Assembly (NCBI GenBank): GCA_963809485.1
Contig: CAWEJX010000008.1
Coordinates: 448,001-512,000, forward strand
Reading direction: 5' to 3'
Origin: an uncultured Acidobacteriota bacterium
GTDB taxonomy: Bacteria > Acidobacteriota > UBA6911
DNA: 64,000 nucleotides
The number at the start of each line of letters is the position of its first letter. Position 1 is the stretch's first letter. The translations under genes were made by a program, and so were the position numbers. The notes under the pieces are model-generated. The model ran no database searches. It was not told the DNA's origin and was given only the letters and a program-made list of their open reading frames with translations. Of the stretch, positions 17,491 to 63,424 are shown piece after piece.

Positions 17491-17727
17491 GTCAGGTGCT
17501 TCCGGCAAAGCCGGAGGCTGGAAAGATTTGAACCGCTCAAAGCGGTTGGAGGAGTTACGCCGGTCTTGAACGCTGACTTACGCGGGCAAAAGCCGATGAG
17601 GCGCTTCCGATCCCCGCCGAACAAATCGGCGTTTGTCAGCGCTTTTATCAGCGTTTCTCAGCGTTTTAAAATGCGGAGCTGTCAAACTCTTTGAGTCTCC
17701 CGGAAGAGCCGAGGGTTTACCAATGTA
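17491..17727 (-). mobile_element. Non-autonomous IS200/IS605-type element (PATE/MITE-A), copy 1
   Basis: Left-end hairpin CCC(C/T)CGGC-TCT-(G/T)CCGGG, right-end hairpin CCTCCGGC-TTT-GCCGGA.G ending CTGAC; preceded by TAAT. Confidence 0.85.
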
Positions 17728-17776
17728 ATTACCCTGCTTGCTGGCCAGGACGGTTCTCCGGAACCGTCCGGCCCAG

Positions 17777-18745
17777 TTAAAACATTTCGGTGCGCCACAA
17801 ATCGTGGACGTGCACGACGCCGATCACGATTCTTTCCGGATCAACCACGACCAGGCTGGTGATTTTCATCTTTTCCATTTTCGCCAGCGCGACGGTCGCC
17901 AGTTCATGCTCCCCGATCGTCTTCGGTTCCTTCGTCATAGCCTGCCCCGCCAGCAGCTTCAGCGGGTCCGGAGACTTCTGAAGCAGCCGTCTCAGGTCTC
18001 CATCGGAGATCACCCCCGCTAAAACGCCGCGATCATCGGTGACGGCCGTCATTCCCAGGCTCTTGCGGGACATTTCATAAATGACATCCGGCATGGGAGT
18101 GGACTCCAGGACACGAGGAATGGATTCCCCACGGTGCATCAGCTCGCCCACCCGAAGGAGCTTTTTGCCGATGCTCCCAGCCGGGTGAACGGACGCAAAA
18201 TCCTCCCTGCCGAATCCCTTCCGCTCCATCAGGGTGATCGCCAGCGCATCGCCCATCGCCAGCGCCGCAGCGGTGCTGGTAGTCGGAGCCAGGCCGAAAG
18301 GACACGCTTCTTCGGCAACACTCACATCCAGGAAAACATCCGCATCCCGCGCGAGGGTGGATTCCCTCTCGCCCGTCATTGCGATCACCGGCAGTTCCAG
18401 GCGTTTCGCCACATTCAGGACCTGAAGAAGCTCGAAGGTCTCGCCGCTCTTGGAAATGGCCAGAATGACATCGTCCCGGCGAAGCAGCCCTACGTCGCCG
18501 TGGAGGGCATCGGCCGCATGAAGGAAGATCGCCGGCGAACCGGTGCTGCTGAGGGTCGCCGCAATTTTCTTGCATATGATTCCCGATTTGCCCAGTCCGG
18601 TGACGGCGATTTTGCCGCTGCAGGCCGCAGCAATATCCAGGGCGCGCAGGAAAGGAGCGCCAATGCGTCCCGTGAGGTTTCGGATGGCTTCCGCTTCGGT
18701 CTCAAGAACCCGTATCGCGGTTTCCACGGCGGATGAACCGTTCAT
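17777..18745 (-). CDS. kdsD: Arabinose-5-phosphate isomerase (KpsF/GutQ; SIS + CBS)
   Basis: GLGKSG, ALHGDVG, APTTST, HPAGSIG and a CBS pair; adjacent to kdsA. Confidence 0.95.
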   Translation of the reverse strand: MNGSSAVETAIRVLETEAEAIRNLTGRIGAPFLRALDIAAACSGKIAVTGLGKSGIICKKIAATLSSTGSPAIFLHAADALHGDVGLLRRDDVILAISKSGETFELLQVLNVAKRLELPVIAMTGERESTLARDADVFLDVSVAEEACPFGLAPTTSTAAALAMGDALAITLMERKGFGREDFASVHPAGSIGKKLLRVGELMHRGESIPRVLESTPMPDVIYEMSRKSLGMTAVTDDRGVLAGVISDGDLRRLLQKSPDPLKLLAGQAMTKEPKTIGEHELATVALAKMEKMKITSLVVVDPERIVIGVVHVHDLWRTEMF

Positions 18746-19566
18746 GAGATCCTCCGAAGCGAGCTGCGGATCTTGAGGATGTCTTCGACCAGTTGCGGAA
18801 ACATTTTCAGGTTGAGCGCATTGGGCCCGTCCGAAAGGGCCTTCGACGGATCGTCATGCACCTCGAAAAAAAAACCGTCCACCCCGGCCGCGGCGCCGGC
18901 GCGCGCCAGGTATGGGATGAAACGGGCATCGCCCCCGGACCGGTCGCCCTGCCCACCCGGCGCCTGCACGCTGTGCGTCACATCGAAAACCACAGGCTGC
19001 CCGAACGATCGCATAATCACGAACGACCGGAAGTCGACCACAAGATTGTTGTATCCGAAGGAAGCTCCCCTCTCCGTAAGCAGGAGGTTGCGGTTGCCCG
19101 TTGCCCGGGCCTTTTCCAGCACCTTGCTCATCTCCTGGGGAGAGAGAAACTGCCCCTTCTTCAGGTTCACACAGAGGCCTGTCGCTGCCGCCGCCTGCAC
19201 CAGATCAGTCTGGCGGCAGAGAAATGCGGGGATCTGAATCGCGTCCAGGACGTCCGCCGCCGAAGGAACCTGGGATTTCTCATGAACGTCGCTCAGGACC
19301 GGAAGACCGCTTGCCTCGCGGGCTTTTTCGAGAATGCGCAGGCCCTCCTCCAGCCCCGGCCCCCGGAAGGACCCGGCGGAAGTCCGGTTGGCCTTGTCGT
19401 ACGAGGCTTTGAATATCAAATCGATCTTCAGCCGCGACGCAACGCCGGCCAGCCGCTCGGCCATCTTGAGACAATGTCTTTCACTTTCGATGACGCACGG
19501 GCCGGCGATGAAAAAAGGCCGGGAGCGGTTACCGATCCTGTAGGATCCAACTTTCACCGATTGCAT
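18742..19566 (-). CDS. kdsA: KDO 8-phosphate synthase
   Basis: AGPCVIES, KASYDKANRTS, QIPAFLCRQTDL, SDGPN. Confidence 0.97.
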   Translation of the reverse strand: MQSVKVGSYRIGNRSRPFFIAGPCVIESERHCLKMAERLAGVASRLKIDLIFKASYDKANRTSAGSFRGPGLEEGLRILEKAREASGLPVLSDVHEKSQVPSAADVLDAIQIPAFLCRQTDLVQAAAATGLCVNLKKGQFLSPQEMSKVLEKARATGNRNLLLTERGASFGYNNLVVDFRSFVIMRSFGQPVVFDVTHSVQAPGGQGDRSGGDARFIPYLARAGAAAGVDGFFFEVHDDPSKALSDGPNALNLKMFPQLVEDILKIRSSLRRIS

Positions 19567-19604
19567 GCTTCCCTTCTCCTGCCCGATCCGCCCAATCGCG
19601 GTTT

Positions 19605-19859
19605 GTCAGGCATCTCCGGCAAAGCCGGAGGCTTGAAGGATTGGAACCGCTCAAAGCGGTTGGAGGAGTTACGCCAATCTTGAACGCTGACTTGCGCGGG
19701 CAAGAGCCGATGAGGTGCTTCCGATTGGCCTTTGCTCGCCGACCCTCGCCGACCAAATCGGCGTTTGTCGGCGCTTTGGTCAGCGTATCTCAGCGTTTCA
19801 AAATATCGAGCCGTCAAACTCTATGAGTCCCCCGGAAGAGCCGGGGGTTTACCAATAGA
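19605..19859 (-). mobile_element. MITE-A copy 2
   Basis: Same ends as copy 1; TAAT target at 19860-19863 (minus strand). Confidence 0.85.
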
Positions 19860-19879
19860 ATTATAAACCCGGTCAAAAA

Positions 19880-19940
19880 AAACGCCACGAATTCCACGGA
19901 TCGAAAATCGATATCCCGACCCGCGGAATTCGTGGCGTTT
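19880..19940. repeat. 9-mer-unit palindromic element (GCCACGAATTCCACGG...CCGCGGAATTCGTGGC)
   Basis: Near-perfect 20-bp stem. Related copies at 37143-37194, 39718-39752 and 62985-63453. Confidence 0.75.
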
Positions 19941-19967
19941 GGGGAGTGGACCGGAATCCCGCAGCGA

Positions 19968-21062
19968 CTAGAAATTGATCAGCTCGATCTCGCGCGTATC
20001 CTTCACGTATTGCTGGTTGGTTTGCGGATAGCAATACTGCTTGCCTTCGAAGTTGCGCAGGATAATCTCCTTTTCGTCGAAATGCACAACGTAATCCGGC
20101 ATGAGCGGTATTTTCCCCCCTCCGCCCGGAGCGTCGATCACGAATTGAGGCACGGCGAACCCTGTCGTATAACCGCGCAGCGCCTGCATGATCTCCAGGC
20201 CCGTCTCCACCCGCGTCCGGAAGTGATTGGTCCCCCTCGTGAGATCCGCCTGGTACAGGTAGTAGGGGCGCACGCGCATCATGAGCAGCTTGTGCATCAG
20301 TTCCTTCAGAACGGCCGGGTCGTCGTTGACGCCCTTCATGAGAACCGTCTGGCAGCCGAGCGGTATCCCGGCGTTTGCCAGGCGTTCGCAGGCTTCCTTC
20401 GACTGGGCCGTGACTTCGCGCGGATGGTTGAAATGCGTGTTGATGAAAATAGGATGATACTTCTTGAGCATAGTGCACAGGGAGTCCGTGATGCGGCTCG
20501 GCAGCACGCAGGGGAACCTTGTCCCTATGCGAATGATCTCCACATGGCGGATGGCGCGCAGGCTGGAGATAATGCGCTCGAGTTTGCGGTCGCTCACCAT
20601 CAGCGGGTCACCGCCCGACAGCAGGACATCCCGTATTTCCGTGTGGCTCCGGATGTAGTCGATTCCCATGGCGATGGTCTTTTCGGAAATCGCGCTGGTC
20701 TGGCCCACCATTCGCTTGCGGGTGCAGAACCGGCAATACATCGGGCAGCGATCGGTGATCAGCAGCAGAACGCGATCGGGGTACCGATGCGTCAGCCGCG
20801 GAACCGGGCTGTCTTCTTCCTCGTGCAGCGGATCCTCGGGAGAGCTCTTGTCCATCAGTTCGTTTACGGACGCGACCGACTGCATCCAGATCGGGTCCCC
20901 CTTCTCCCGGATCAGGCTGTAATAGTACCGGGGAATTCTCATCGGGTACACGCTGCATACCGCGTCGATTTCCCCGGGGTCCGCCGCGTAATCCCCGGCG
21001 ATCACTTCGCCCTGCGTCACGCTGTTTCGCAAATCAATCGTCCACTGCTCCATTCGTTCCAT
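19968..21062 (-). CDS. KamA-family radical SAM aminomutase (lysine 2,3-aminomutase-like)
   Basis: HRYPDRVLL, CPMYCRFC, LSGGDPL, HFNHPRE and the PLP-lysine motif APGGGGKIP. Confidence 0.93.
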   Translation of the reverse strand: MERMEQWTIDLRNSVTQGEVIAGDYAADPGEIDAVCSVYPMRIPRYYYSLIREKGDPIWMQSVASVNELMDKSSPEDPLHEEEDSPVPRLTHRYPDRVLLLITDRCPMYCRFCTRKRMVGQTSAISEKTIAMGIDYIRSHTEIRDVLLSGGDPLMVSDRKLERIISSLRAIRHVEIIRIGTRFPCVLPSRITDSLCTMLKKYHPIFINTHFNHPREVTAQSKEACERLANAGIPLGCQTVLMKGVNDDPAVLKELMHKLLMMRVRPYYLYQADLTRGTNHFRTRVETGLEIMQALRGYTTGFAVPQFVIDAPGGGGKIPLMPDYVVHFDEKEIILRNFEGKQYCYPQTNQQYVKDTREIELINF

Positions 21063-21081
21063 GTGCGGACTTGTCTCCTTG

Positions 21082-21582
21082 TCAGGATAGCCTCTTCACT
21101 AATGTAAGCTTATCGTCCCCGACCTCGTAGAAATCTCCTGTTCTGTAAATTTCCCCATAGCCGAGACGGCGATAAAACTCAACGGTACTTGCGTAGGATA
21201 ATTTGGAGGAAGTCTCCACGGCCAGAAGCGGGAGTTTCTGCTCCAGCGCTTTGCCTTCCACGTAAGCCATCAACGCGCGCCCGGAACCCTGCCCTCTCGA
21301 GCCCGGGTGCGTCGCGATCCAGTAGAGATCGAAAGCTCCGCGTGTCAGCGGCACAGGCCCCCAGCACGCGTAGGCATGCACCTCAGACGCGCGATCCAGC
21401 GCCACGGCAACACGGTAATCCGTCTGCCTTTCGTCCGTGAGATAAATATCCGCCCGTTCCAGGGCGCACTCGATTTCCGTTTGGCTGAAGTTTCCCGCGG
21501 ACACGACGATATCGGCGACCGCGGCGCGGTCGGCCGGGATCATAGGCCGGATGAACACGGATGGGGGGTCGTCAGATTGCAT
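21082..21582 (-). CDS. GNAT-family N-acetyltransferase
   Basis: LYWIAT..SRGQGSGRALM acetyl-CoA motif and FYRRLGY. Confidence 0.9.
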   Translation of the reverse strand: MQSDDPPSVFIRPMIPADRAAVADIVVSAGNFSQTEIECALERADIYLTDERQTDYRVAVALDRASEVHAYACWGPVPLTRGAFDLYWIATHPGSRGQGSGRALMAYVEGKALEQKLPLLAVETSSKLSYASTVEFYRRLGYGEIYRTGDFYEVGDDKLTLVKRLS

Positions 21583-22615
21583 AAACGGCGGCGACTACCT
21601 TTGCGCCACGCTCCATGGCCGCTTGACTGATCCGCAGAATAATGTCGGCATAGGAATATCCGGCGGCGTTTGCGGCCCTTGCGAATCCAGCCCTGGGAGA
21701 AATGTCCGGATTCGGGTTGACTTCGAGTACATGAATACATCCGCGAGAGTCGGTACGCATATCGACGCGAGCGTAGTCCCGGCAACCGATACACTGATGG
21801 CTTCGAATGGCAATGTCCCTGATCCGCTTCTCGAGCCGTCTGGTGATATTCGCGGGACAGATCGGGACGGTGCAGCGGTACAGGGGGCTTTCTTCGTCCC
21901 ACTTGGCGCGATAGCTCACAATTTTCGGCTCATCCTCCGGCAGACCGGAAAAATCTATTTCGGAAATGGCCAGCACTTCGGGATTCTGATGACCCACGAC
22001 CGAAACGTTGAATTCCCTGCCGTCCAGGTATTCCTCGACGAGGGCCTCCTGCTCGTAGATATCGTGGATGTACCGGATCTGTTTCTGGAGCTGCTCCGGA
22101 TTGCGGCAGACAGAGTGGCTGTTGATTCCCAGGCTGGCGTCCTGGCGCGAAGGCTTGACGATCATGGGGAAGCGCATGCCGCGCGGGATCGTGAGCTTCT
22201 GCCCCGGATAGCGCACATACCCGCGGGGCGTCGGGATCCCGGCAGACCTCAGAATCTGCTTGACGTGAAATTTGTTCAGGGCAAGCCCCAAGGCAAAGGG
22301 ATCCGAACCCGTGTACGGGATGCCCATCAATTCCAGAAGGCCCGCCATGCACATCTCCAGCTCGCATTTTCCATTGAGCTCTTCGCAGAGATTGAAGACA
22401 AACTTGGGCGCGATTTCTTTGAGAGTCTCGATCAGTTCCCTGGAGAAGCAATCGACGGACAGAACGTAGGGACGGAATCCGCGGCCTCTCAGACTCTCCT
22501 CGATAGCCCCCACTTCCTCGCGCAGGATGTTGGCGGGATAGATAATCTCCTCGCAGGCATTGCGATCCGAGATGATAGCCGCGTTGTAGAGAACGACACA
22601 GTCGTAGGATTCCAT
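21572..22615 (-). CDS. D-Ala-D-Ala ligase-like ATP-grasp protein 2
   Basis: VFNLCE, GIPYTGSD, KPSRQDASLGI, YARVDMR, EVNPNPD. Confidence 0.9.
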   Translation of the reverse strand: MESYDCVVLYNAAIISDRNACEEIIYPANILREEVGAIEESLRGRGFRPYVLSVDCFSRELIETLKEIAPKFVFNLCEELNGKCELEMCMAGLLELMGIPYTGSDPFALGLALNKFHVKQILRSAGIPTPRGYVRYPGQKLTIPRGMRFPMIVKPSRQDASLGINSHSVCRNPEQLQKQIRYIHDIYEQEALVEEYLDGREFNVSVVGHQNPEVLAISEIDFSGLPEDEPKIVSYRAKWDEESPLYRCTVPICPANITRRLEKRIRDIAIRSHQCIGCRDYARVDMRTDSRGCIHVLEVNPNPDISPRAGFARAANAAGYSYADIILRISQAAMERGAKVVAAVYAI

Positions 22616-23640: not shown

Positions 23641-23662
23641 CGAACCCGACCTTTCGCAACCT

Positions 23663-24132: not shown

Positions 24133-24197
24133 GCCCGGGCCCCGTTCCTCAGGTATAATGACGCACCACATATGCGGGACTTGAGGAGTTTTGAAAG

Positions 24198-25297: not shown

Positions 25298-25654
25298 TTT
25301 CGTGAGGACGGGTCCGTAAAGACTGTCTCAAAACTGCCGACGAGAATCTCGCTATAGTCGTTTTGGGACCGACTCTGGGGGTCCGCCCATAAATTTTAAC
25401 GCTGAGAAACGCTGATAAAAGCGCTGATAAACGCCGATTTGTCGGCGAAGGTCGGCGTAACTCCTCCAACCGCTTTGAGCGGTACAAATCCTTCAAGCCT
25501 CCAGCTTTGCCGGAGGCACCTGAAATAAATATTATTTTCCCGGCATTTTTTATTGGTTGGGTAAGGACGGCCCTCCGGAAACTTTCTCAAAACTGCCCGC
25601 GAGGATCACACGACAGTCGTTTGAGACGGTCTCTGAAGACCCGTCCTCACGAAA
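25298..25654. mobile_element. Composite of two MITE-B units (GTCTCAAAA...TTTTGAGAC-like IRs) flanking a partial MITE-A
   Basis: Outer 17-bp perfect IR TTTCGTGAGGACGGGTC / GACCCGTCCTCACGAAA. MITE-B cores at ~25321-25375 and ~25580-25634. MITE-A interior and right end at 25393-25523. Confidence 0.7.
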
Positions 25655-27222: not shown

Positions 27223-27332
27223 TCTATTCCCTCCTGATATCGTGTTTGACAATGCAATAGCACACTCGCCCCTGTGAACTCAATGAATAAGAAAATTCAT
27301 CATTCGGGATTCGTCATTCCCCGATGGAACGA

Positions 27333-27400
27333 GTCAGGTACCTCCGGCAAAGATGGAAGCTTTGCGGTTGCCGGCCTCTCGAGGCGGTCTGATCTCAACC
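27333..27400 (-). mobile_element. Degenerate isolated right end of an IS200-type element
   Basis: gtcaggtacctccggcaaag matches the MITE-A right end; the rest is diverged. Confidence 0.55.
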
Positions 27401-34896: not shown

Positions 34897-35002
34897 TCCT
34901 CGCTCCGTTGCAATACCTAAAACTTATTATTATATTGTCTTCAGAACGGTTCGTCAAGGCTTAACCTTTGATATTCCATATCTTATGGTCTTGGGGAGGC
35001 TG

Positions 35003-35204
35003 TAAGGATTTAAGGATCAGAGGATCAGAGGATCAGAGGATCAGAGGATCAAAGGGAAAAAACACAACCAAATTGCCGATGGGGGTCTATTTAGGTAATT
35101 GCGTCTCCTGTCTCTACCCTCTAATCCTTTGTTCCTTGAATCCTCTATTCCCTGAACCCCTTTGATCCTTTGATCCTTTGATCCTTGACTCCTTTGATCC
35201 TTCT
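35003..35204. repeat. 8-mer repeat hairpin (unit AGGATCAG/AGGATCAA versus CCTTTGAT)
   Basis: (aggatcag)x4 on the left arm and (cctttgat)x3+ on the right arm. Confidence 0.9.
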
Positions 35205-35235
35205 ACCCCCCCAACCTTCATCGCCACATACACTA

Positions 35236-37071
35236 TCACTCCCGATTCCCCTGACCCTCCGTAGAGGACTCCTCAGTTTGAAGTCGGAAAAAGCGGCGGT
35301 AGGGGCCATCGTTCGCCATAAGGCTATCGTGGCTCCCGGACTCCACGATTCTGCCCCGGTCAAGCACGAGGATCAGATCGGCGTTGCGTATGGTGGACAG
35401 GCGATGCGCGATTACGAACGTCGTGCGGTCTCGTATAAGATTGGTCAGAGCCTGCTGAACGAGTTTCTCGGATTCCGAATCCAGCGCCGAAGTCGCTTCG
35501 TCCAAAATCAGGATCGGCGCATTTTTAAGAAGGGCGCGCGCGATCGAGATGCGCTGCCGTTCGCCGCCGGAAAGCCTTTGGCCCCTCTCGCCGATCAAGG
35601 TGTCGTACTTCATTGGAAAGCCATTGATGAAATCATCCGCCAGGGCGGCGCGCGCTGCCGCGAAAATATTCTCCTCCGGCGCGTTCACATCCCCGTAAGC
35701 GATGTTGTTCCGAACCGTATCATTGAACAGAAAGGTCTCCTGCGTCACGATGGCGATCTGTTTCCGCAGAGAACTCTGCGTGTATTCGCGGATATCGGTG
35801 CCGTCGATGCGCACAGTACCGGCGGTAGGGTCATAAAAGCGCGGTAATAACCCGACCAGCGTGGTTTTACCCGATCCGCTGCTGCCCACGATCGCAATCA
35901 CCTGGTTCCGTTTGACCTCGAGATGAATGTCTCTCAGGACTTGAGTGGCGCCATTCTGGTCGACGTAATCGAAGGAAACGTTTTGAAATTGGATCGAGCC
36001 GCGAAATCCGTCCAGAGCCCGGGCATCACCCCGGTCCTGGATTTCCTTGTGCGTATCCAGCAATTCCACTATCCGGGACGCTGAAGCAAGAGCCCGTTGT
36101 ATCTGAACATGTATCCGGCTCAGTTTCCGGATCGGGTCGTACATGCGAAAGAGAGCAAACAGCGATCCCCCGAACATCCCCAGCGTCAGGGTCCCTTCCG
36201 CGATGCGCGTGTGGGCATAATACAAAAGCGGAATGAACGCCACCACGCCCAGCAGTTCCATGACAGGGGAATTGACAAAAAGAATGGCGGCGGCTTTCAT
36301 ATTGCTTCGAAACAGCTTGGCTGCGGTTTTCCGGAATCCGTTTTCCTCGTGCTGTTCCATGCCGAACGCCTTGATGATGCGCATTCCCGTAATCGACTGC
36401 TGGAGCTGGTCGTTCAGATCGGCGGCGTCCTCGCGGCCTTTCCGGCTGACGTGCCGTATGCGTTTGCCCATGCCGAGAGTCAACAGGAGAGCCAATGGCG
36501 CGATGAGCAGGGACAGCAGCGCCAGCTTCCAGTCGATGCAGAAGACCAGGATAATCAGGGAAGCCAGCAGAACGGTCTCCCGGAACAATTCCGCCAGGAT
36601 GGTTGAAACCGCCTCCTGAACCTGCTCGACATCGCCGCTCATCCTGGACATGAGACGGCCGGTCGAGTTCAGGGAGAAAAAACCCATGGATTGGCCCAGG
36701 ACGTGGTGGAAAAGCTCATTCCGCAGATCCATCACGACGCTTTGGCCGACATGGCTCATGGAATAATTGGAGTAATACAGGCATACGCCCTTGAGGAGGG
36801 TCAGAATCAGGAGCGCAAGCGAAAGCTGGGTAATCACGCTGCCGGGCATCAGCGAGAGAATAAGCGAGACATACCTTTCAACGAAACTCAGCCTCTGGCC
36901 GGCCGGGCCGGCTTCAATCGATCCTGTGGCAAGAACCTTATCAAAAAGCGGGATTGACAGGGTTGTAGTAGTGGATTCAAAAATGCCGACAAAAAGAAGG
37001 AGCAGCAGAGAAAGAGCCAGTCCGCCCCGGTGAGGCCGTATGAAAGGAAAGAGTCTTCGAAAATCGGTCAT
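35236..37071 (-). CDS. msbA: MsbA-like lipid A/ABC exporter (TMD + NBD)
   Basis: 6 TM helices, GSSGSGKT, LSGGERQR, DEATSALD. Confidence 0.85.
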   Translation of the reverse strand: MTDFRRLFPFIRPHRGGLALSLLLLLFVGIFESTTTTLSIPLFDKVLATGSIEAGPAGQRLSFVERYVSLILSLMPGSVITQLSLALLILTLLKGVCLYYSNYSMSHVGQSVVMDLRNELFHHVLGQSMGFFSLNSTGRLMSRMSGDVEQVQEAVSTILAELFRETVLLASLIILVFCIDWKLALLSLLIAPLALLLTLGMGKRIRHVSRKGREDAADLNDQLQQSITGMRIIKAFGMEQHEENGFRKTAAKLFRSNMKAAAILFVNSPVMELLGVVAFIPLLYYAHTRIAEGTLTLGMFGGSLFALFRMYDPIRKLSRIHVQIQRALASASRIVELLDTHKEIQDRGDARALDGFRGSIQFQNVSFDYVDQNGATQVLRDIHLEVKRNQVIAIVGSSGSGKTTLVGLLPRFYDPTAGTVRIDGTDIREYTQSSLRKQIAIVTQETFLFNDTVRNNIAYGDVNAPEENIFAAARAALADDFINGFPMKYDTLIGERGQRLSGGERQRISIARALLKNAPILILDEATSALDSESEKLVQQALTNLIRDRTTFVIAHRLSTIRNADLILVLDRGRIVESGSHDSLMANDGPYRRFFRLQTEESSTEGQGNRE

Positions 37072-37229: not shown

Positions 37230-37466
37230 GTCAGGTACCTCCGGCAAAGCCGGAGGCTTGAAAGATTGGAACCGCTCAAAGCGGTTGGAGGAGTTACGCC
37301 GGTCTTGAACGCTGACTTACGCGGGCAAAAGCCGATGCGGCGCTTCCGACCCTCGCCGAACAAATCGGCGTTTGTCAGCGCTTTTATCAGCGTTTCTCAG
37401 CGTTTCAAAATACGGAGCTGTCAAACTCTTTGAGTCTCCCGGCAGAGCCGGGGGTTTACCAATGCA
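37230..37466 (-). mobile_element. MITE-A copy, inserted at the TAA(T) stop of the upstream gene
   Basis: Best-conserved ends; the target TAAT (37467-37470) includes the stop codon. Confidence 0.88.
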
Positions 37467-37467
37467 A

Positions 37468-39516
37468 TTAGCGGTTCCTGCTGGGGCGTGACACTCCGCC
37501 GGGCCTCCCGCCGGCGGCAGGGCCGGAGTTCCCTCCGCTCCTGCCCGCGGAAGGAGCAGGCATCGATCGGGCCCCACTGCTGCGTCCGGCGCCAGAAAAT
37601 GAGCTGGACCGCTGGGGTGCGCTGTATATCGTCATGCGCCGGGACTCAGGCGCTCGCGCGCCCGCACCCGGATTGTTCCAGCCGCCGCCACCGTTTGAAC
37701 GCGGAATGACGGGGTTGTTTTGCGGCCGGACTTCAGCAGGCGCCGCCGGCGCGACCGGAGCGTTGTAGGTTCGCGGCTGCTCCTGCACCGCGCGTTCGGA
37801 GCGCCACGTGTATGATCTCCCCTGAGTGGAGCGATCCGTCGCCTGGGGGCGGGCAACAGGATCGGTGATCGTCCGCGCGCCGGCATCCGGCACCGTTGAA
37901 TAGGACCTCCGGGCGGCAGGCGCAGAGGTTTGAGGCCGCGCGGCCGGCTCGGTCGCAGTCCGCGCTTCCCTGGCTGTTGGGATCGGCCTTGTGGCCGGGC
38001 CTGTATTCCGGATGGTGCGTCCTACGCCCGGGACATCCACCACCTGGATATTGGATTGCGTTCTGCGGCCTTCATCGCCCGCTATCCCTGTATTTATGAC
38101 CTGCCGGGGCGCAGCGCCGTTTGAGCGTATCTGCGGATTGCTTATTGCCGTGAGTCTATTTCGGTCGCCGTTGATGGTTCGGGGCATATTACGGACCACC
38201 GCAGGCAAGGATGCGTTTTCATTCGGCCGGACAGCGGGACGGTCGGGCGCGGCCGGTCTGTAACTGGTTGCCGTGGGCTGAACGGCAGGCCGATCCCCGG
38301 ACCATGAACCCTGTCTCCACGGCTGATCGACATTGGGAAAAGGCGTTCTGCGGTCCCTGTTTTCGAACCTGCCATTCCTGAAGTGCTCGATCCCCGTGGT
38401 GTGGAAGGCTCCGTGAACATTTCTATTGAAAGGATCGCCGGGCCGCCGGGTGTGCAGATTGCCCAATTGACTCAGCTGGTAGCTGTAAATGCCCCTGTTG
38501 TAGCGGTAGTGGTTAATGCCGTAATAATCTCCGGGGCCCAGCGGGCACCAGGAGACCCAGCCTGGGCCGCTGTAAAAACTTACCAGGCCGGGAGACCAGA
38601 AATTAAACGAGAACCCCGGGCCCGGGAGCCAGCACCATCCGTGATGAGAATGGCGATACCACCGGCCGTAATGGTACGGCAACCATCCCCAAGGCTCATA
38701 GGAAATCCATGTCCAGCCCGATAGCGGGCGATAGCACCAGCGTCCGAGAGAATATGGAGACCAGTAGGAATCCACATAATATGGGACCCAGGCGCTGCCA
38801 TAGTAGTCAACGTCCACCCATTGTCCATACCGGTCCAGTTCAGACACTCCCATGTAAAGGCTGTCGGGCAGATATTGCCTGCTCTTATAGGCATTGCGGT
38901 CCACATTGCGCCGGTCCTGCCATTCGTCCCATTCGTCCCGCTTGTTATATTTGGAAAGTAATGCTTCCCTGCCTCTCCCGGGACTGACACGAAGCATCTC
39001 CCCGGAATCGATGGTGCGCGAAAATTCGTTGCTGGCAACCTCAAGTTCGCCTTTTCGGACAATGGCCTCGGTATCCCCGTTTTCCGCGACACTGAAACGA
39101 TATACGCCCTTGCGCCGGGCATTGAAAGCCGCCGCCGGGGTGTTGATCTCGAAATCCAGGCCGCTGGATACATTCAGGGTGGATAAACCGATGAGTATGC
39201 GCAGCTGGATCCGTTTCTCGTCGAGGCTAAGAACTTCTATATCGGTGTTTTCAGCCAGCCGATAAACCGAACCGTCGTCGAGCTCAATTTCGGCTCTTCC
39301 ATCCGGCCCGGTGTATATGCGGTCTCCCGGTTCCAGCGGCAGATTGATGCTTGCCGCCGACCAGTCCGCATCCGAGGCATGCTGAAAACTGACATGCCCG
39401 ACAAGGTAGGATAGGCGTGCAAGACGCACATAATCGTCGTTATCGGATTCTGCCTGAGAAGCAGAAACGGCCAGAAATGAAGTTGTCAGGAATGCTGTTA
39501 CGAGGACATACGACAA
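37468..39516 (-). CDS. Secreted FecR-like domain + DUF6600-like Trp/Tyr-rich protein with a low-complexity tail
   Basis: Signal peptide, ARLSYLVGHV...GDRIYTG.DGRAEI, and WTWISYEPWGWLPYHYGRW repeat region. Confidence 0.8.
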   Translation of the reverse strand: MSYVLVTAFLTTSFLAVSASQAESDNDDYVRLARLSYLVGHVSFQHASDADWSAASINLPLEPGDRIYTGPDGRAEIELDDGSVYRLAENTDIEVLSLDEKRIQLRILIGLSTLNVSSGLDFEINTPAAAFNARRKGVYRFSVAENGDTEAIVRKGELEVASNEFSRTIDSGEMLRVSPGRGREALLSKYNKRDEWDEWQDRRNVDRNAYKSRQYLPDSLYMGVSELDRYGQWVDVDYYGSAWVPYYVDSYWSPYSLGRWCYRPLSGWTWISYEPWGWLPYHYGRWYRHSHHGWCWLPGPGFSFNFWSPGLVSFYSGPGWVSWCPLGPGDYYGINHYRYNRGIYSYQLSQLGNLHTRRPGDPFNRNVHGAFHTTGIEHFRNGRFENRDRRTPFPNVDQPWRQGSWSGDRPAVQPTATSYRPAAPDRPAVRPNENASLPAVVRNMPRTINGDRNRLTAISNPQIRSNGAAPRQVINTGIAGDEGRRTQSNIQVVDVPGVGRTIRNTGPATRPIPTAREARTATEPAARPQTSAPAARRSYSTVPDAGARTITDPVARPQATDRSTQGRSYTWRSERAVQEQPRTYNAPVAPAAPAEVRPQNNPVIPRSNGGGGWNNPGAGARAPESRRMTIYSAPQRSSSFSGAGRSSGARSMPAPSAGRSGGNSGPAAGGRPGGVSRPSRNR

Positions 39517-43111: not shown

Positions 43112-43605
43112 AATTTATGATTTACGAATTACGAATGACGAATTACGAATTTAAACACACGGTGATGATTTCCGGTAAGCTGTTTGTTGTACCGGAAGTC
43201 TATTTTCTTTACGGTGCTCGGGACTGGGGCCTTCATGGGATTCACCCGTTGCGCGCCGGTTTCAGATTGGCAACTCTTATCTAATTCCATTGGTAAACCG
43301 GCTCTGCCGGGAGACTCAAAGAGTTTGACAGCTCCGTAATTTGAAACGCTGACGTACGCTGAAAAAATATAAATTTTTTTCGGCGTGGGTCGGCGTCCGT
43401 TCAGCGTGCGTCGGCGTTCAAGACCGGCCTAACGCCTCCAACCGCTTTGAGCGGTTCAAATCTTTCAAGCCTCCGGCTTTGCCGAGGTACCTGACTGCCA
43501 TTGAAGATTGCATTCTGACTATCGACTGAATAAAAAATGATCGCAAAACATCACCGCGCTTTTTAATTCGTCATTCGTCATTCGTCATTCGTAATTCGCA
43601 ATTCG
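43112..43605. repeat. ATTACGA/ATGACGA repeat arms (43112-43152 and 43565-43605) enclosing a ~410-bp loop
   Basis: Same unit as 26677-26761; the arms are inverted; the loop contains MITE-A. Confidence 0.85.
43286..43495 (+). mobile_element. MITE-A copy with a variant interior
   Basis: TAAT|TCCATTGGTAAACC ... GTACCTGAC; small deletions in both hairpins. Confidence 0.82.
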
Positions 43606-57417: not shown

Positions 57418-57448
57418 GGCGTTTGGTCTTATTGTAGCACGATGGAGG

Positions 57449-57580
57449 TTAAACGTTGAACGTTTGAACGTTTTAACGTTGAACGTTTGCACGTTTGAAC
57501 GCTAAAAACTATACAAGTTATGGGGATCTCTGTGATCCTCGCGTTTGCTTTTAACGTTTAACGTTTAACGTTCAACGTTT
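57449..57580. repeat. AACGTT 7/8-mer arrays between lipA and nfeD
   Basis: Arrays at 57449-57502 and 57550-57580; the second contains the lipA stop. Confidence 0.88.
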
Positions 57581-58431
57581 TGTTCGTGCGCGTGGTACGA
57601 GGAACGCACGAGCGGCCCCGAAGCGACGTGCCGGAAACCCATGGAATACGCCAAATCGCGGAATTCCCTGAACTCGTCCGGTGTGTAGAATTTCTCCACG
57701 GGCAGGCTTTCGCGGGTCGGCTGCAGATATTGACCCAGCGTCACGATATCCACGTCGGCCTCGCGCAGATCCCTTAATACATCCAGGATCTCATCGCGGC
57801 TTTCACCCAGGCCAAGCATGATGCCGGACTTTGTCGTTACCCGGATGCCGAAGGATTTGGCGTTTGCGAGATGACTGAGGGACCGTTGATAGCGCGATCC
57901 TGCCCGCGCCAGCGGATAAAGCCGCGGAACCGTTTCGACATTGTGGCCCAGAACGTCCGGCACGGCCTCGACAACCGCGCGCAGCGCCTCCGTGCTCCCC
58001 TGGAAATCGGGAATCAGAACCTCGATTCGTATGCCTGGGCAGGAGTCCCGCGTCTTGCGGATTGTCTCGGCAAAAATAGAGGCGCCGCCGTCCTTTAGAT
58101 CGTCCCGGTCCACCGAGGTTATGACGGCATATTTCAGACCCAGTTTCCGGATTGCCTCCGCAATCCGGCGGGGTTCGTCCCGATCGAATGCCGGAGGCAT
58201 GCCGGTCTTCACGGCGCAGAACTTGCACGCCCGTGTGCACACCTCTCCCAGGATCATGAAAGTGGCTGTGCCCGCTCCCCAGCATTCGCCAATGTTGGGG
58301 CAGCGCGCGTCCTCGCAAACCGTATTCAGTTTGTGCTCGTGAACCAGCCCCTTGACCCTGGAATACCCTGCCCCGCCGGGCAGCCTCACCTTCAGCCATT
58401 CCGGCCGGCGCCGATGATTTTCCTGCAGCAT
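57565..58431 (-). CDS. lipA: Lipoyl synthase
   Basis: CEDARCPNIGEC, CTRACKFC, RSSY. Confidence 0.97.
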   Translation of the reverse strand: MLQENHRRRPEWLKVRLPGGAGYSRVKGLVHEHKLNTVCEDARCPNIGECWGAGTATFMILGEVCTRACKFCAVKTGMPPAFDRDEPRRIAEAIRKLGLKYAVITSVDRDDLKDGGASIFAETIRKTRDSCPGIRIEVLIPDFQGSTEALRAVVEAVPDVLGHNVETVPRLYPLARAGSRYQRSLSHLANAKSFGIRVTTKSGIMLGLGESRDEILDVLRDLREADVDIVTLGQYLQPTRESLPVEKFYTPDEFREFRDLAYSMGFRHVASGPLVRSSYHAHEQNVER

Positions 58432-58502
58432 TGCTTCCTCTCAAAAATATTACACTACACCCATTCAATCCCGATTTTTAGCCAATCTCTCCTCCCCCAT
58501 CT

Positions 58503-58558
58503 TTTAACGTTCAACGTTCAAACGTTAGAACGTTTAAACGTTCCAACGTTCAACGCAA
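58503..58558. repeat. AACGTT 7/8-mer array in the divergent lipA/SNF2 promoter region
   Basis: taacgttcaacgttcaaacgttagaacgtttaaacgttccaacgttcaacg. Confidence 0.88.
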
Positions 58559-58606
58559 CAACGAGTATTCCCGAAATGCCATCGTAAAATGTATAATAGT
58601 AGGTTT

Positions 58607-61600
58607 ATGTCGCCATTGGAATTGCTGGGACGGGACGTCAGCCAGAAAATAAAAAACCGCGGCAGGGACTATTTCGAGATGAATGCCGTCCGTATCCTGT
58701 TCGCAGACAAGGAGTTCGTGTCTGCGCGGGTCTCCGGGTCACGCGCTTACGAAGTGGATCTGGAGCGGGACGGGAAGGCCCTCATTTATTCCTGTGATTG
58801 CCCCTATTTTGAAGACCGTTTGGAAGTCTGCAAGCATGTCTGGGCAACCATTCTGGCGGCTGAAAAAAAGGGACTCCTCGGAAATTTGACAGGCGGCGGC
58901 AACCTGGAACTCCTTCCCACGGGTCTTCATGGCGACCTGGATGACGAGGAGCTTGAGGAACTGGACTTTGAAGAAGCCGAAGACTTTCCCGCCTCAATCG
59001 AGTATGAAAGAGCACTTCAGGCTCCAGGGAAACGCCGGGATCCGGCACGCCCCGGCTCCTGGCAGCAGATTCTCAATAAAATTACGCAACAGGAGCCGCC
59101 CGATCCAAGGGTGCCGGCCTGGCCCCCGGACCGGGAAATTCTATATGTCATCGATTACGGCGGCCGGTATTACGGCGCCAACCTGGCGATTCAGGTCGAT
59201 GTGCGCGAGCGCAAAAAAAACCGGGACTGGAAAAAGTCGAAACCCCTGTCGCTTTCGCATGACATGCTTTCCATGATTCCCGATCCGGCCGACCGGGAGA
59301 TTCTTACCCGCCTCATCGGCGTAAAGCGCGAAACCTGGTACCAGGGGCCCTATGAATCCATCTACCGTTTTCAGCCTGCAAAACTTGAGCTGGCTGCGCT
59401 TTTGCCCGTGATTTCCCGCACCGGCCGCCTGTTTTTCCGCACGCCCGAACATGAAACTCCGCTTTCCGTCCACCTCGATGAGGGCGCTCCCTGGGCTTTG
59501 CGGATTGAAGTGCGGGCGGATGAAGATGGACAGCGGTATGAAGTCTGCAGCGCGCTCCGCCGGGACGGCCAGCGCCTCAGCCTTTCCCACCCCGAGCACA
59601 TATTCCGCCAGGGCTTTTTAATCGCCGGCGAAACCATCGCTTTCTTCGAAGGATCTTTCGATTGGATTTCGTTCTTTCGGAGTGAGGGATCCTTTTTCGT
59701 CCCCAGAGAAGAGGCTGTTTCATGGCTGGAAACCATGCTGTCGATTCCGGCCCTTCCCCCGATGGATTTGCCCGACGAATTACGGCTCGAGCAGGTGGAA
59801 GCCACACCCTGCCCGATCGTGCGCGTGAGCACGCGAAAGGAAACCTGGGGCTCCTCCTATCTGCATGCGGAGATGTTCTTCGACTACCAGGGCAATTTCG
59901 TGACGGAAACGGCGCCGGCAACAGGGATTCCCCTTGTTTCGGAGCGGCGGATGATTTTGCGCAACATGGGTTTTGAACGCCTGGCGGCGCAGAAATTCGA
60001 GGAGACCGGCTTCCGGCGCCAGCAAGCCTATGGCGGCAGCCGCTTCTGGACGATCTCCCAATCCCGGCTGCCTTCGGCCGTGCGGGATCTGGTATCGGCC
60101 GGATGGCATGTGGAAGCCGAGGGGAAGCTATTCCGCAATCCGGATTCTTTTAAGCTTCAAATCCATTCCGGCATCGACTGGTTCGAGTTGCACGGCACGG
60201 TTGAGTTCGGCGATGCCCGCGTCGCCATCCCGCGTCTGCTTGCGGCCCTGAAGCGCCGCGAGAACACTATCCGGCTCGACGACGGCAGTTACGGCATGCT
60301 GCCCGAGGAGTGGCTGCAAAAGTACGGGATGCTCGCGAGCCTGGGCACCGCCCAGGCGGATCACGTCCGGTTCAGCCGCAATCAGGCCGGTCTTCTGGAC
60401 GCTCTTCTGGCTTCCCAGCCCGATGTGAGCTGCGACCAGCTTTTCGAAAAGCTGCGCGGCGAACTGCATTCCTTTGGCGGGGTTGAGCCCGCGGACCCCC
60501 CGCCGGGATTTTGCGGGACGCTGCGCCCTTACCAGCGCGAAGGACTGGGCTGGCTGCATTTCCTCGAGCAGTTCGGATTCGGCGGCTGCCTCGCCGACGA
60601 CATGGGACTGGGCAAAACGATCCAGGTCCTGGCGCTGATCGAAGAGCGCCGTGCCCTGCGCGGCGCAAACGGTTCCGCAGACCGCCCGCCTCCATCTCTG
60701 GTGGTGATGCCGCGGTCGCTGGTTTTCAACTGGCGGCGGGAAGCCGAACGGTTTACGCCCAACCTGCGCATCCTGGAACACACCGGGGTCGAGCGCGTAC
60801 GCAGCCACGAACACTTCGACGACTACGATGCGATTTTCACCACTTACGGAACGCTCCGCAGGGATGCGCCGTTCTTCAGGGAGAAGATGTTCGACTACGT
60901 AATCCTGGACGAGGCGCAGGCCATCAAGAATGCATCGACCGAATCGGCCAAAGCGGCCCGCCTGCTGCGCGGCCAGCATCGCCTGGCCTTGAGCGGCACG
61001 CCGATCGAAAATCATCTGGGCGAACTCTGGAGCCTGTTCGAGTTCCTGAATCCGGGCATGCTCGGATCCGCTTCCGTGTTCAAGCTGGGCAAAGGATCCA
61101 TGAGCAAGCTCGACGAGGCTCAACGGGAGCTTCTGGCCCAGGCGCTGCGGCCGTTTATCCTCCGCCGCACCAAGGCGCAGGTAGCCAAAGACCTTCCAGC
61201 CAAAGTGGAACAGACCCTGTTCTGCCAGCTCGAAGCGGCGCAGCGCGCGCTTTACGACGAACTGCGCGATCACTACCGGCGCACCCTTCTGGACCGCATC
61301 GAAACCGAAGGCCTGGAAAAATCCAAGATTCACATCCTGGAAGCGCTCCTCAGGCTGCGCCAGGCGGCGATTCACCCCGGGCTCATCGACCGCTCGCGCG
61401 CCGGCCATGCAAGCGCAAAGCTGGATATGCTGATGCCTCAGCTTGCCGAAGTGCTGGATGAGGGACACAAGGCCCTCGTCTTCTCACAATTCACCTCCAT
61501 GCTCGCCATCCTGCGCGAGAGGCTTGACAAAGAAAATATCCGCTACGAATATCTGGATGGACAGACGCGCGACCGGGAATCGCCGGTCGAGCGGTTCCAG

Positions 61601-61918
61601 AACGATCCGGATTCGAGACTGTTCCTCATAAGCCTGAAGGCGGGAGGATTGGGACTGAACCTTACCGCGGCGGAATATGTGTTTCTACTTGATCCCTGGT
61701 GGAATCCGGCCGTCGAGGCGCAGGCAGTGGACCGGACGCACCGAATCGGGCAGATGCGGTCGGTTTTTGCCTACCGCCTGATCGCCAAAGATACGGTGGA
61801 GGAAAAAGTGCTCGCTTTGCAGAATACAAAGCGCGAAATTGCCGATGCAATCATCAACCAGGACAACAGCCTGATGCGAAACCTCCGCCCGGAGGACCTC
61901 GCGGTTCTGTTAAGCTGA
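58607..61918 (+). CDS. SWIM zinc finger + SNF2-family helicase
   Basis: CDC...CKH SWIM; LADDMGLGKT, DEAQ, SGTP.EN, QAVDRTHRIGQ. TATAAT at 58592. Confidence 0.95.
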   Translation: MSPLELLGRDVSQKIKNRGRDYFEMNAVRILFADKEFVSARVSGSRAYEVDLERDGKALIYSCDCPYFEDRLEVCKHVWATILAAEKKGLLGNLTGGGNLELLPTGLHGDLDDEELEELDFEEAEDFPASIEYERALQAPGKRRDPARPGSWQQILNKITQQEPPDPRVPAWPPDREILYVIDYGGRYYGANLAIQVDVRERKKNRDWKKSKPLSLSHDMLSMIPDPADREILTRLIGVKRETWYQGPYESIYRFQPAKLELAALLPVISRTGRLFFRTPEHETPLSVHLDEGAPWALRIEVRADEDGQRYEVCSALRRDGQRLSLSHPEHIFRQGFLIAGETIAFFEGSFDWISFFRSEGSFFVPREEAVSWLETMLSIPALPPMDLPDELRLEQVEATPCPIVRVSTRKETWGSSYLHAEMFFDYQGNFVTETAPATGIPLVSERRMILRNMGFERLAAQKFEETGFRRQQAYGGSRFWTISQSRLPSAVRDLVSAGWHVEAEGKLFRNPDSFKLQIHSGIDWFELHGTVEFGDARVAIPRLLAALKRRENTIRLDDGSYGMLPEEWLQKYGMLASLGTAQADHVRFSRNQAGLLDALLASQPDVSCDQLFEKLRGELHSFGGVEPADPPPGFCGTLRPYQREGLGWLHFLEQFGFGGCLADDMGLGKTIQVLALIEERRALRGANGSADRPPPSLVVMPRSLVFNWRREAERFTPNLRILEHTGVERVRSHEHFDDYDAIFTTYGTLRRDAPFFREKMFDYVILDEAQAIKNASTESAKAARLLRGQHRLALSGTPIENHLGELWSLFEFLNPGMLGSASVFKLGKGSMSKLDEAQRELLAQALRPFILRRTKAQVAKDLPAKVEQTLFCQLEAAQRALYDELRDHYRRTLLDRIETEGLEKSKIHILEALLRLRQAAIHPGLIDRSRAGHASAKLDMLMPQLAEVLDEGHKALVFSQFTSMLAILRERLDKENIRYEYLDGQTRDRESPVERFQNDPDSRLFLISLKAGGLGLNLTAAEYVFLLDPWWNPAVEAQAVDRTHRIGQMRSVFAYRLIAKDTVEEKVLALQNTKREIADAIINQDNSLMRNLRPEDLAVLLS

Positions 61919-61963
61919 AAAAAACACCAGAGATTTTGGCAATTATGAAAAGGGGGCCCGCTC

Positions 61964-62986
61964 ATGCACAGAAATTGTATTGTTCCACCCTACATGCTGC
62001 GCGCTATCCCCCGGAACGGGGACTCCAGGCAGCAGGCGCTGGCCTGGTCCACGTTGACAGATTCCGAGCAGTTTCGCGGTGAACGCCGGGTGATGACGGT
62101 CCTGGCTCCGCTGGCGGCGACCTCGCCGGGGCGCAAGCGCCGCACGGTTTATGATGCGCGCCACAAATACGACCTGCCCGGCAGGCTGGTCCGATCGGAA
62201 GGCGATCCCAAATCAAGGGACCCGCGGGTCAACGAAGCCTATGACGGCGCCGGGTTCACCTATGACATGTTCAAAAAGGCGTTTTCCCGCAATTCGATTG
62301 ACGACCGCGGCATGCGCATCGATTCGACGGTCCATTACGGGGATTGCTACGACAACGCTTTCTGGAACGGCCGGCAGATGGTCTACGGCGACGGGGACGG
62401 CCGGATTTTCGCCCCGTTCACCAAAGCCCTCGATGTCATCGGCCACGAATTGACCCACGGCATCACACAATGCGAAGCCGGGCTGAATTACCGCGGCCAG
62501 CCGGGCGCCTTGAACGAATCGTTTTCGGACGTCTTCGGAAGCCTGGTCAAACAGTACAGGCGACGCCAGACCGCCAAGGAAGCCGACTGGCTGATCGGCG
62601 CGGACCTGTTTCTTCCGGGCGTAAAGGCCAAAGCCATCCGGTCCATGAGAGAGCCCGGCACGGCCTACAACGATCCCGTGCTGGGCAAGGATCCTCAGCC
62701 CGGCCACATGGACGATTACATTGTCACCGAAGAGGACAACGGCGGCGTGCACCTGAACTCCGGAATCCCCAACCGGGCTTTCTACGAGCTGGCGATGCGC
62801 CTGAAAGGGTACGCCTGGGAGAAAGCGGGCGCTATCTGGTACCTGACCTTGACCGAAAAATTGCGCCCCGGATCGAAATTCCGCGACGCCATGACGATGA
62901 CGCTCACGGCTGCCGCCGAGCTTTACGGCATCAACAGCCGCGAGCAGAAAGCCGTGCGGGAAGCCTGGTCCGAAGTCGGACTATAA
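61964..62986 (+). CDS. Protealysin-like M4 metallopeptidase
   Basis: Short propeptide IVPPYML, NAFW, HELTH, ALNESFSD, DNGGVH.NSG; no signal peptide. Confidence 0.93.
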   Translation: MHRNCIVPPYMLRAIPRNGDSRQQALAWSTLTDSEQFRGERRVMTVLAPLAATSPGRKRRTVYDARHKYDLPGRLVRSEGDPKSRDPRVNEAYDGAGFTYDMFKKAFSRNSIDDRGMRIDSTVHYGDCYDNAFWNGRQMVYGDGDGRIFAPFTKALDVIGHELTHGITQCEAGLNYRGQPGALNESFSDVFGSLVKQYRRRQTAKEADWLIGADLFLPGVKAKAIRSMREPGTAYNDPVLGKDPQPGHMDDYIVTEEDNGGVHLNSGIPNRAFYELAMRLKGYAWEKAGAIWYLTLTEKLRPGSKFRDAMTMTLTAAAELYGINSREQKAVREAWSEVGL

Positions 62987-63026
62987 AAAACGCCACGGAT
63001 TCCACGGATAAATCCTGTTTTTTATT

Positions 63027-63424
63027 TCTATTGGTAAACCCACGGCTCTGCCGGGGGACTCATAGAGTTTGACAGCTCCGTATTTTGAAACGCTGAGATA
63101 CGCTGACAAAAGCGCTGACAAACGCCGATTTGTTCGGCGAGGGTCGGCGAGCAAAAGCCGATGAGGCGCTTCCGATGGAGTTTTCTGCGGCGGCACTGTG
63201 GCAAACGCCCGGTTTCTCATACCCTTCATCTCCTTGCCGCACGGCGCTTGCCACAGTGCCGCCGCAGAAAACTGTCCAGCGCAGAGCGCTGGCCCCTGCG
63301 GGGATCGGAAGCGCCTCATCGGCTTTTGCCCGCGTAAGTCAGCGTTCAAGACCGGCGTAACTCCTCCAACCGCTTTGAGCGGTTCAAATCTATCAAGCCT
63401 CCGGCTTTGCCGGAGGTACCTGAC
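63027..63424 (+). mobile_element. MITE-A long copy carrying extra nested inverted repeats
   Basis: TATT|TCTATTGGTAAACC ... GGTACCTGAC, with a ~160-bp internal insert. Confidence 0.85.

Follow-up and report, generated by a model that had tools for sequence, protein, structure and literature searches.

The 64,000-nt window analysed here, part of contig C8 of an uncultured Acidobacteriota genome, carries several copies of a short repeat (family A) that is very probably a palindrome-associated transposable element (PATE), namely an internal-deletion derivative of IS-A, a 629-nt insertion sequence (IS) of the IS200 type, that moves or has moved by the single-strand route of the IS200/IS605 family. 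The first-pass annotation had taken it for a non-autonomous IS200/IS605 element, and this was borne out by the ends, the lack of a target duplication, the covariation of guides with their targets, a strand bias and the finding of a cognate IS200-type element in the same taxonomic family. The features of family A are those of a PATE: it is short and non-coding, without inverted termini or target duplication, and has hairpins on the same strand, fixed tetranucleotides, guides, a preferred strand orientation and ends in common with an element encoding a Y1 transposase. The class itself is already known, and family A is a new, unusually large and clean example of it.

Copies, boundaries and target site

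All seven places reported in the window were real, as determined by repeat finding and by BLAST of the family consensus sequences, with a full copy present at each of the five starts where one had been listed. The elements, and the parts of the single long copy, are as follows (coordinates are positions in the window):

17491-17727, minus strand: family A copy 1, short form, 237 nt; target TAAT at 17728-17731 (minus strand); right guide CCAG
19605-19859, minus strand: family A copy 2, short form, 255 nt; target TAAT at 19860-19863
37230-37466, minus strand: family A copy 3, short form; target TAAT at 37467-37470
43286-43495, plus strand: family A copy 4, short form, 210 nt; TAAT at 43282-43285
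63027-63424, plus strand: family A copy 5, long form, 398 nt; TATT at 63023-63026
25393-25524, plus strand: 5'-truncated family A copy without the left hairpin; right hairpin present; terminates in TGAA
27333-27584, minus strand: whole element of sibling-family B type, 252 nt; last 32 nt family A-like
63039-63057, plus strand: left subterminal hairpin of copy 5, CCCACGGC TCT GCCGGGGG; guide TAAA at 63035-63038
63398-63416, plus strand: right subterminal hairpin of copy 5, CCTCCGGC TTT GCCGGAGG; guide CAAG at 63394-63397; cleavage tetramer TGAC at 63421-63424
63149-63299 (approximate), plus strand: internal palindromic module, found in the long form only; 63140-63289 folds at -55 kcal/mol (z -9)

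As first described, the left flank is TAAT in four of the full copies and TATT in copy 5, the terminus is TGAC in all five, the left guide is TAAA and the right guide is CAAG, or CCAG in copy 1. Of the two places reported as partial copies, the one at 25393 is indeed truncated family A, while that at 27333 is a whole element of a sibling family, and the consensus BLAST match at 27331-27362 is only its A-like right tip. The left end of this element (TGAA/TCCAATGGGCGAT CCACCGGC TCT GCTGGTG, the slash here and below marking the junction) has the guide CGAT beside TGAA, and its right terminus is A-like (..GCCGGAGGTACCTGAC) with a decayed hairpin. The window had also been described as free of transposase genes, and no Y1_Tnp match was found anywhere on contig C8. 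At 210-398 nt, and non-coding, family A elements are too short for a transposase, and the open reading frames (ORFs) of copy 5 are short and overlapping.

The genome comprises 6.04 Mb in 21 contigs (55.6% G+C) and is 95.7% complete. Copy 5 with its flanks gave 930 high-scoring segment pairs (HSPs) in a BLAST search of the genome, and the genome-wide search with both ends, which had been suggested as a check, returned 301 left-end and 298 right-end matches, none of them less than 600 nt from a contig end. When each left end was paired with the next right end, 134 pairs fell in the range 200-259 nt and 104 in the range 360-419 nt, with 28 left ends left unpaired. Family A has a short form of about 235 nt and a long form of about 395 nt, the long form having in addition an internal palindromic module of about 160 nt, which was found at 129 genomic places, 121 of them within paired family A elements. 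Matches to the consensus forms span 89,395 bases, or 1.48% of the genome. At least two sibling PATE families were also seen. Family B (left end CTAA/TCCAATGGGAGAT-hairpin, right end AAAG-hairpin-ATACTTAC) gave 27 strict left-end matches, and its copies often carry inserted copies of family A. Family C has about nine copies, with a left end of the type found in a further IS200-type element, IS-C.

The boundaries were read from left ends anchored on the conserved ATTGGTAAA-hairpin block (n=285) and from anchored right ends (n=267). The tetramer flanking the left end was TAAT in 173 of the 285, TGAT in 39 and CAAT in 10, and the TAnT flanks noted in the window are thus enriched across many copies. 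Base composition in the flank was flat up to position -8 and then T in 237, A in 201 (G in 54), A in 257 and T in 244. TAAT makes up 0.17% of the tetramers in the genome, and both the family A ends and the TAAT enrichment are far beyond chance. The first three bases of the element were TAC (133), TCT (63) or TCC (30), and these belong to the element because they go with internal subfamily differences. At the other end, the terminus was TGAC in 209 of the 267 and the next base was T in 211, A in 35, C in 15 and G in 6. The consensus left and right ends are unrelated to one another, and there are no terminal inverted repeats.

Target duplication was examined by joining the 60-nt flanks of 189 full elements and searching the joined sequences against the genome. 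Ten of them had non-self paralogues across the junction, mostly copies of a second repeat family. The junction was ungapped at eight of these ten elements (108 of 130 HSPs), and none of the ten occupied copies contained duplicated or extra bases. In the clearest example, the element lies between CGCCACCAAT and TTTGAGACAG, and an uninterrupted CGCCGCCAAT-TTTGAGACAG is found at C8:542299. Target duplications, which the first-pass annotation did not expect, were seen at none of the ten when compared with their paralogous empty sites, and the ends taken together with the ungapped junctions show that the element spans exactly TAC/TCT to TGAC and was inserted without duplication. The T that follows TGAC is part of the target. 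It was also considered as a 1-nt duplication or a shifted boundary, but this was rejected because the paralogous empty sites keep the same number of T residues and IS608 has a known +1 preference.

Hairpins, guides and strand orientation

Both hairpins are subterminal, lie on the same strand and consist of an 8-bp G+C-rich stem with a 3-nt loop, the left being CCCCCGGC TCT GCCGGGGG and the right CCTCCGGC TTT GCCGGAGG. Pairing at the individual stem positions is seen in 78-98% of copies. Of 201 left ends, 175 have the loop TCT, and of 197 right ends, 176 have TTT; both hairpins also form when single-stranded DNA (ssDNA) is folded. Compensatory changes are few, and stem covariation inside family A is therefore uninformative.

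For IS608 of Helicobacter pylori, CL (TTAC) is described as pairing with the guide GL (AAAG) and CR (TCAA) with GR (GAAT), with the pairs C-3:G-35, T-4:A-34 and A+17:T-4 and an A within the guide that activates the enzyme (PMC3201880, PMC5934647). When the register G1:C2, G2:C1, G4:C4 was applied to family A, the guide TAAA gave TAnT and the guide CAAG gave TGnC, both as observed, and TGAT fits via a T.G wobble. The same register was applied to 11 ends drawn from families A, A', B and C and from IS-A, IS-B and IS-C, with the cleavage tetramers fixed by the family boundaries. The tetramer at the foot of the stem makes three of three pairs at all 11 ends, compared with none of 66 windows slid by 1-6 nt, and the guide/target pairing rule that had been proposed for the ends of family A holds.

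The guides covary with the sites beside them. The guide TAAA (162 copies) has TAAT beside it in 112 and TGAT in 24. In family A-like left ends where the guide is TAAT (n=10) the site ends in A in eight, and in those where it is CAAT (n=3) the site is TGAA or CGAA. In family B, AGAT is found with CTAA and AAAG with TTAC. The IS-B elements of four other genomes (G041, G004, G015 and G016) have AGGT with CTAA, and their right ends, where readable (G041, G004 and G015), have AAAG with TTAC. An element in G035 has CATA with TGAT.

IS608, as described in PMC3201880, PMC5934647 and PMC5027513, resembles family A in its subterminal hairpins, the guide 5' of each foot, the pairing register and the A at G3 and C3. 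Like family A, it inserts 3' of its target and makes no duplication, carries a small second hairpin on the 3' side of the left palindrome, shows a base preference at target +1 and has the lagging-strand-template orientation. The sites differ, being TAAT/TGAC in family A rather than TTAC/TCAA, as does the preferred +1 base, which is T rather than the C given for IS608 (PMC5934647). The left cleavage site of family A is 12 nt from the hairpin, there is no internal tnpA or tnpB, and the element is known here from sequence alone. An extrahelical T belongs to the description of the IS608 stem; none was seen in family A, where the G+C-rich stems are perfect over 8 bp.

The top strand of the element lies on the locally G-rich strand in 225 of the 301 copies, as measured in 50-kb windows. 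Copies in plus and minus orientation number 4 and 71 on contig C20, 20 and 0 on C6, 1 and 20 on C1, and 0 and 10 on C16. On C7, the orientation turns from minus to plus near 410-450 kb, at the minimum of the cumulative GC skew. Since neither the copies nor the regions are independent of one another, the binomial p for 225 of 301 (3e-18) exaggerates the strength of the bias. The G-rich strand carries the leading-strand sequence and is hence the lagging-strand template. The same orientation is reported for the IS200/IS605 family (PMC5027513).

The cognate element and transposase genes

A search across the taxonomic family (51 genomes) yielded G059, from another genus, which carries three 100% identical 629-nt copies of IS-A (loci L113, L115 and L116) flanked by TAAT, TAAT and TGAT. 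The left end of these copies reads TTAATGAGGTAAA CCCCCGGC TCT GCCGGGGG ACTCACAGAGTTTGACA and the right end ..AACCGCTTTGAGCGGTTCCCAATTCAAG CCTCCGGC TTT GCCGGAGG TCACTGAC, terminating in TGAC and followed by T in three of three. The tnpA gene is intact and encodes an IS200-type protein of 143-155 aa (Y1_Tnp, 128 bits; NF033573, 139 bits). IS-A is like family A in its left hairpin and loop, the guides TAAA and CAAG, the targets TAAT and TGAT, and the terminal TGAC with T following. The two have sequence in common between GGTAAA and GAGTTTGACA at the left end and between CCGCTTTGAGCGGTTC and the terminus at the right end. IS-A differs in having an intact tnpA, where the core of family A is about 110-270 nt of unrelated sequence, in belonging to another genus, and in beginning with TTAATGAGG where family A begins TAC/TCT-ATTGG. 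Judged by these ends, the IS-A of G059 is the cognate autonomous element of family A.

The genome under study has four Y1_Tnp matches, on contigs C6, C15 and C20, and no TnpB domain (PF07282). The four loci are:

L001, contig C6: 617-nt IS200-type element IS-C; left end TAAT/TCGCATTAGGGTAAA-hairpin; right end ..CCTGAC/T
L002, C15:225400-227000: intact 150-aa Y1 gene; NF033573 77.9 bits, cut-off 55
L003: truncated Y1 gene
L004: 279-aa protein; match to the REP-associated tyrosine transposase model (REP, repetitive extragenic palindromic) scores under the cut-off

Family A ends do not flank any of these loci, and the only such end near one of them is a left-end fragment 3.2 kb from L001. Both flanks of L002 contain inverted arrays of a three-hairpin module (CCGTCGC GTGA GCGACGG; GGCCGCGTAGCGGCC; CCCGGCCTTTCAAGGCCGGG), the first hairpin of which has 13 matches in the genome, seven of them at the L002 locus. 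The gene and module look like a small system of the REP type with its REP-associated tyrosine transposase (RAYT), separate from family A.

Two other genomes of the genus, G007 and G002, contain IS-A with family A-type ends, and both copies are damaged. In the G007 copy a conserved Trp is replaced by an in-frame TGA and the right hairpin is truncated, and in the G002 copy tnpA lacks its 5' end. In G006, also of this genus, the only copy found was of IS-C, at another site and with 2 nt missing from tnpA close to its 3' end. Every IS-A or IS-C tnpA read in this genus is damaged, each in a different way (L001; L008/L015 in G007; L021 in G002; L023 in G006). Intact tnpA genes were of the IS-B type in G041, G004 and G015 and of IS-A in G059. 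When contigs were scanned with the G007 TnpA, IS200 genes 60-71% identical to it were found in many phyla, and none of those examined had family A ends. The tnpA flanked by the same ends that the first-pass annotation had asked for was thus found intact in G059. The expectation of a cognate tnpA in the lineage passed narrowly, as the intact gene is in another genus and all copies in this one are damaged.

The chemistry of transposition, and the identity of the TnpA that did the work, are inferred. Deletion of the IS-A core would have spared about 65 nt at the left and about 55 nt at the right, and the remainder of family A is unrelated filler. A Y1 HUH TnpA acting in trans would bind both 8-bp, 3-nt-loop hairpins on the top strand, with TAAA paired to the flanking TAAT or TGAT and CAAG paired to the terminal TGAC. 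The top strand would then be excised as a circle ('peel and paste') and re-inserted 3' of TAAT or TGAT, preferably with T next, in ssDNA of the lagging-strand template, with no duplication made. Family A is probably now orphaned in this genome, since no intact cognate tnpA was found in the assembly.

The closest known counterparts are the PATEs of Haloquadratum walsbyi, which number 177-194 per genome over six families (Dyall-Smith et al. 2011, PMC3119063). As described there, they resemble family A in being too short for a transposase, in lacking terminal inverted repeats and target duplication, in having near-terminal palindromes related to IS200/IS605-type elements and an origin by core deletion, and in reaching hundreds per genome with insertion differences despite IS200-type pseudogenes. 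Family A differs in its bacterial host, in a parent with tnpA only and no tnpB, and in forming one homogeneous family of about 300 copies. A single PATE-like element is described from Halanaerobium in PMC7290912.

Relatives, alternative explanations and neighbouring features

Twelve of 31 related genomes, including the genome under study (G000), match the element, and high copy was otherwise seen only in G006 (63 matches), a different species in which orthologous DNA is about 90% identical. G006 has an orthologue of copy 1 that shares both its flanks and its private substitutions, and family A therefore predates the species split. A 601-nt stretch containing copy 1 and the adjacent genes is 90.7% identical to G006, with copy 1 no better conserved than the genes. 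Clean base-exact empty sites for the window copies were not found in G006. There is no element at the site of copy 4, where the intergenic DNA is too diverged for an exact comparison. The sites of copies 2 and 3 are at G006 contig breaks, those of 25393 and 27333 also contain elements or fragments, and that of copy 5 contains unrelated sequence of similar length.

For this reason paralogous sites and metagenome contigs were used. Contigs of four wetland or soil metagenome runs were compared with a 20-kb stretch of C8 containing four elements; about a fifth of the sampled words were present, and the long pieces were about 95% identical. One contig (X4, L112) joins 19027 to 19435 with six other letters, lacking the element at 19028-19425 and base-exact on the right-end side. 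An X3 contig skips 5248-5508, around the element at 5261-5470, and contigs from X1 and X3 have 81 letters in place of 13045-13767. As these are related strains and not the same strain, the contigs record insertion differences within the lineage rather than present-day movement. The empty sites that had been sought in relatives were found in metagenome contigs of related strains, with further ones at paralogous positions in this genome; none in G006 was clean.

Several observations weigh against descent from IS-A and movement by the single-strand route. No intact cognate tnpA was found in this genome, at 95.7% completeness, or in the PATE-rich G006. The IS-C tnpA at L001 has TAG at the position of the Tyr conserved in its relatives (VPK*RKR), and its right hairpin and end are degenerate. 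The left flank is neither TAAT nor TGAT in 73 of 285 copies, some of which are indel register shifts in the anchoring. In its minimum-energy fold the right end gains a G.T foot pair, which would make the guide TCAA and break the rule. The strand bias is confounded with gene orientation. The empty sites are paralogues 72-86% identical, or related strains about 95% identical, rather than isogenic strains, and family A copies are related by descent, so that the counts are not of independent events.

It is unlikely, if conceivable, that family A is still mobile here through a non-cognate Y1 enzyme, be it that of L002, the IS-C TnpA before it acquired its TAG, or the product of an unassembled or incoming tnpA. 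The 21 best of the other copies listed are 97-98% identical to copy 5, compared with about 90% for orthologous DNA in G006, which suggests spread after the species split. IS-C has the guide TAAA, the target TAAT and the terminus TGAC in common with family A, and two elements join an IS-C-type left hairpin to a family A body. The gene at L002 is intact with an IS200/IS605 transposase score above the cut-off, and a Haloquadratum strain is described as having strain-specific PATE insertions though its IS200-type genes are all pseudogenes (PMC3119063). However, L002 has its own, different hairpin repeats, the IS-C TnpA is only 46% identical to that of IS-A, and no same-strain insertion polymorphism was seen. 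Domestication as REP-like repeats, or as REPINs, in which selection keeps the copies for a host function and a RAYT-type Y1 enzyme, single-copy and inherited vertically, spreads them, is highly improbable. It would account for the high copy number, the hairpins, the location mostly outside long ORFs and the presence of a single-copy Y1 gene with REP-like flanks. Flanks complementary over at least 8 nt, found at 10 of 189 elements compared with 1.6% of 2,999 random T[AG]ATT sites drawn from the genome including genic DNA, also fit. REP sequences and bacterial interspersed mosaic elements (BIMEs), with the RAYT (TnpA-REP), are described as high-copy hairpin repeats outside genes that are linked to a Y1 HUH enzyme (PMC3333891, PMC8266576). 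Family A is unlike them in having two distinct ends and a body of 210-400 nt, rather than 20-40-nt single palindromes or inverted doublets flanking a single-copy RAYT gene. Its ends match those of a bona fide multi-copy IS200 element from which it derives, and it is not clustered around the RAYT-like gene, which is flanked by different repeats. Copy 1 is no better conserved than its neighbouring genes. No evidence was found here for the suggestion that the family is on its way to becoming a domesticated repeat.

A miniature inverted-repeat transposable element (MITE) of a DDE transposon, or a rolling-circle derivative (IS91/ISCR or Helitron-like), might likewise be short, non-coding and high-copy, and IS91-type elements also insert beside a fixed tetranucleotide without duplication. 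This origin is already contradicted by what was observed. Family A lacks the terminal inverted repeats and target duplication of a DDE-type MITE, it has subterminal hairpins with guide tetramers at both ends in the same orientation, and its full-length relative encodes a Y1 IS200-type TnpA of 143-155 aa rather than a DDE or Y2 enzyme. The derivation of family A from IS-A as a PATE leaves room for a bolder proposal, in our view quite improbable, that a natural retargeting series is to be found within this single genome. In it, sibling PATE families from related IS200 elements would have changed their guides together with their landing sites (TAAA with TAAT, TAAT with TAAA, CAAT with TGAA, and AGAT/CGAT with CTAA/TGAA), and the largest family would have kept spreading after the loss of its cognate transposase. 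If so, Y1 transposases would recognise only a generic shape of 8-bp stem and 3-nt loop, the non-cognate IS-C TnpA or the RAYT-like L002 could drive any of these families, and the choice of target would be wholly encoded in the passenger DNA. The guide-target rule rests mainly on the biochemistry of IS608 and ISDra2, and this genome is a large natural data set from which the rule can be read directly. It offers one family of about 300 copies and siblings whose guides differ, together with an exact parent and a strong replication-strand bias. No intact cognate tnpA was found in either of the PATE-rich genomes, a situation known, and unexplained, from Haloquadratum; the ends and proteins now defined make it possible to test whether non-cognate Y1 enzymes mobilise such elements in trans.

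It had been suggested that the element is able to land on TAA stop codons, and this is supported. A stop triplet is found at 222 of the 285 left junctions (TAA in 178, TGA in 42 and TAG in 2). Of these stops, 38 end an open frame of 100 codons or more and 27 one of 200 codons or more, compared with 5.5% and 1.6%, respectively, of 7,208 random T[AG]AT control sites. At copy 3 the adjoining TAA (37470-37468) is the stop codon of a 682-aa ORF (37468..39516). Since family A accounts for 1.5% of the genome and ORF-closing stops lie at 38 of its 285 anchored left ends, it should be masked or annotated so that gene ends and 'conserved' intergenic hairpins are not misread. The 682-aa protein itself falls in DUF6600/FecR clusters that are commonest in Acidobacteriota and Aminicenantota, which is a lead only.

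Copy 5 sits in the middle of a palindrome, its flanks at 62993-63007 and 63432-63446 being terminator-like hairpins that are reverse complements of each other. In a promoter and terminator scan of this copy, one weak promoter-like site and three resembling terminators were found, of which two lie in the flanks; these are no evidence of function. Searching Rfam at gathering scores gave no match within the elements. At E values up to 1, sub-threshold matches to microRNA precursors and COG2908 fell on the long internal hairpin, with 63180-63272 scoring 41 bits against plant and animal microRNA precursor models (gathering score 88). Both identities were rejected as artefacts of a long perfect stem, below threshold.

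Two further features of the window lie outside family A. At 34992-35271, about 275 nt are absent from the matching G006 site, which has 3 nt there. This segment, in which an 8-nt unit forms inverted arrays (repeats of GAGGATCA followed by repeats of TTGATCCT), may be a further small element, either mobile or expandable. The other feature is a pair of 75-nt inverted repeats at 2181-2255 and 5465-5539, 87% complementary to each other.

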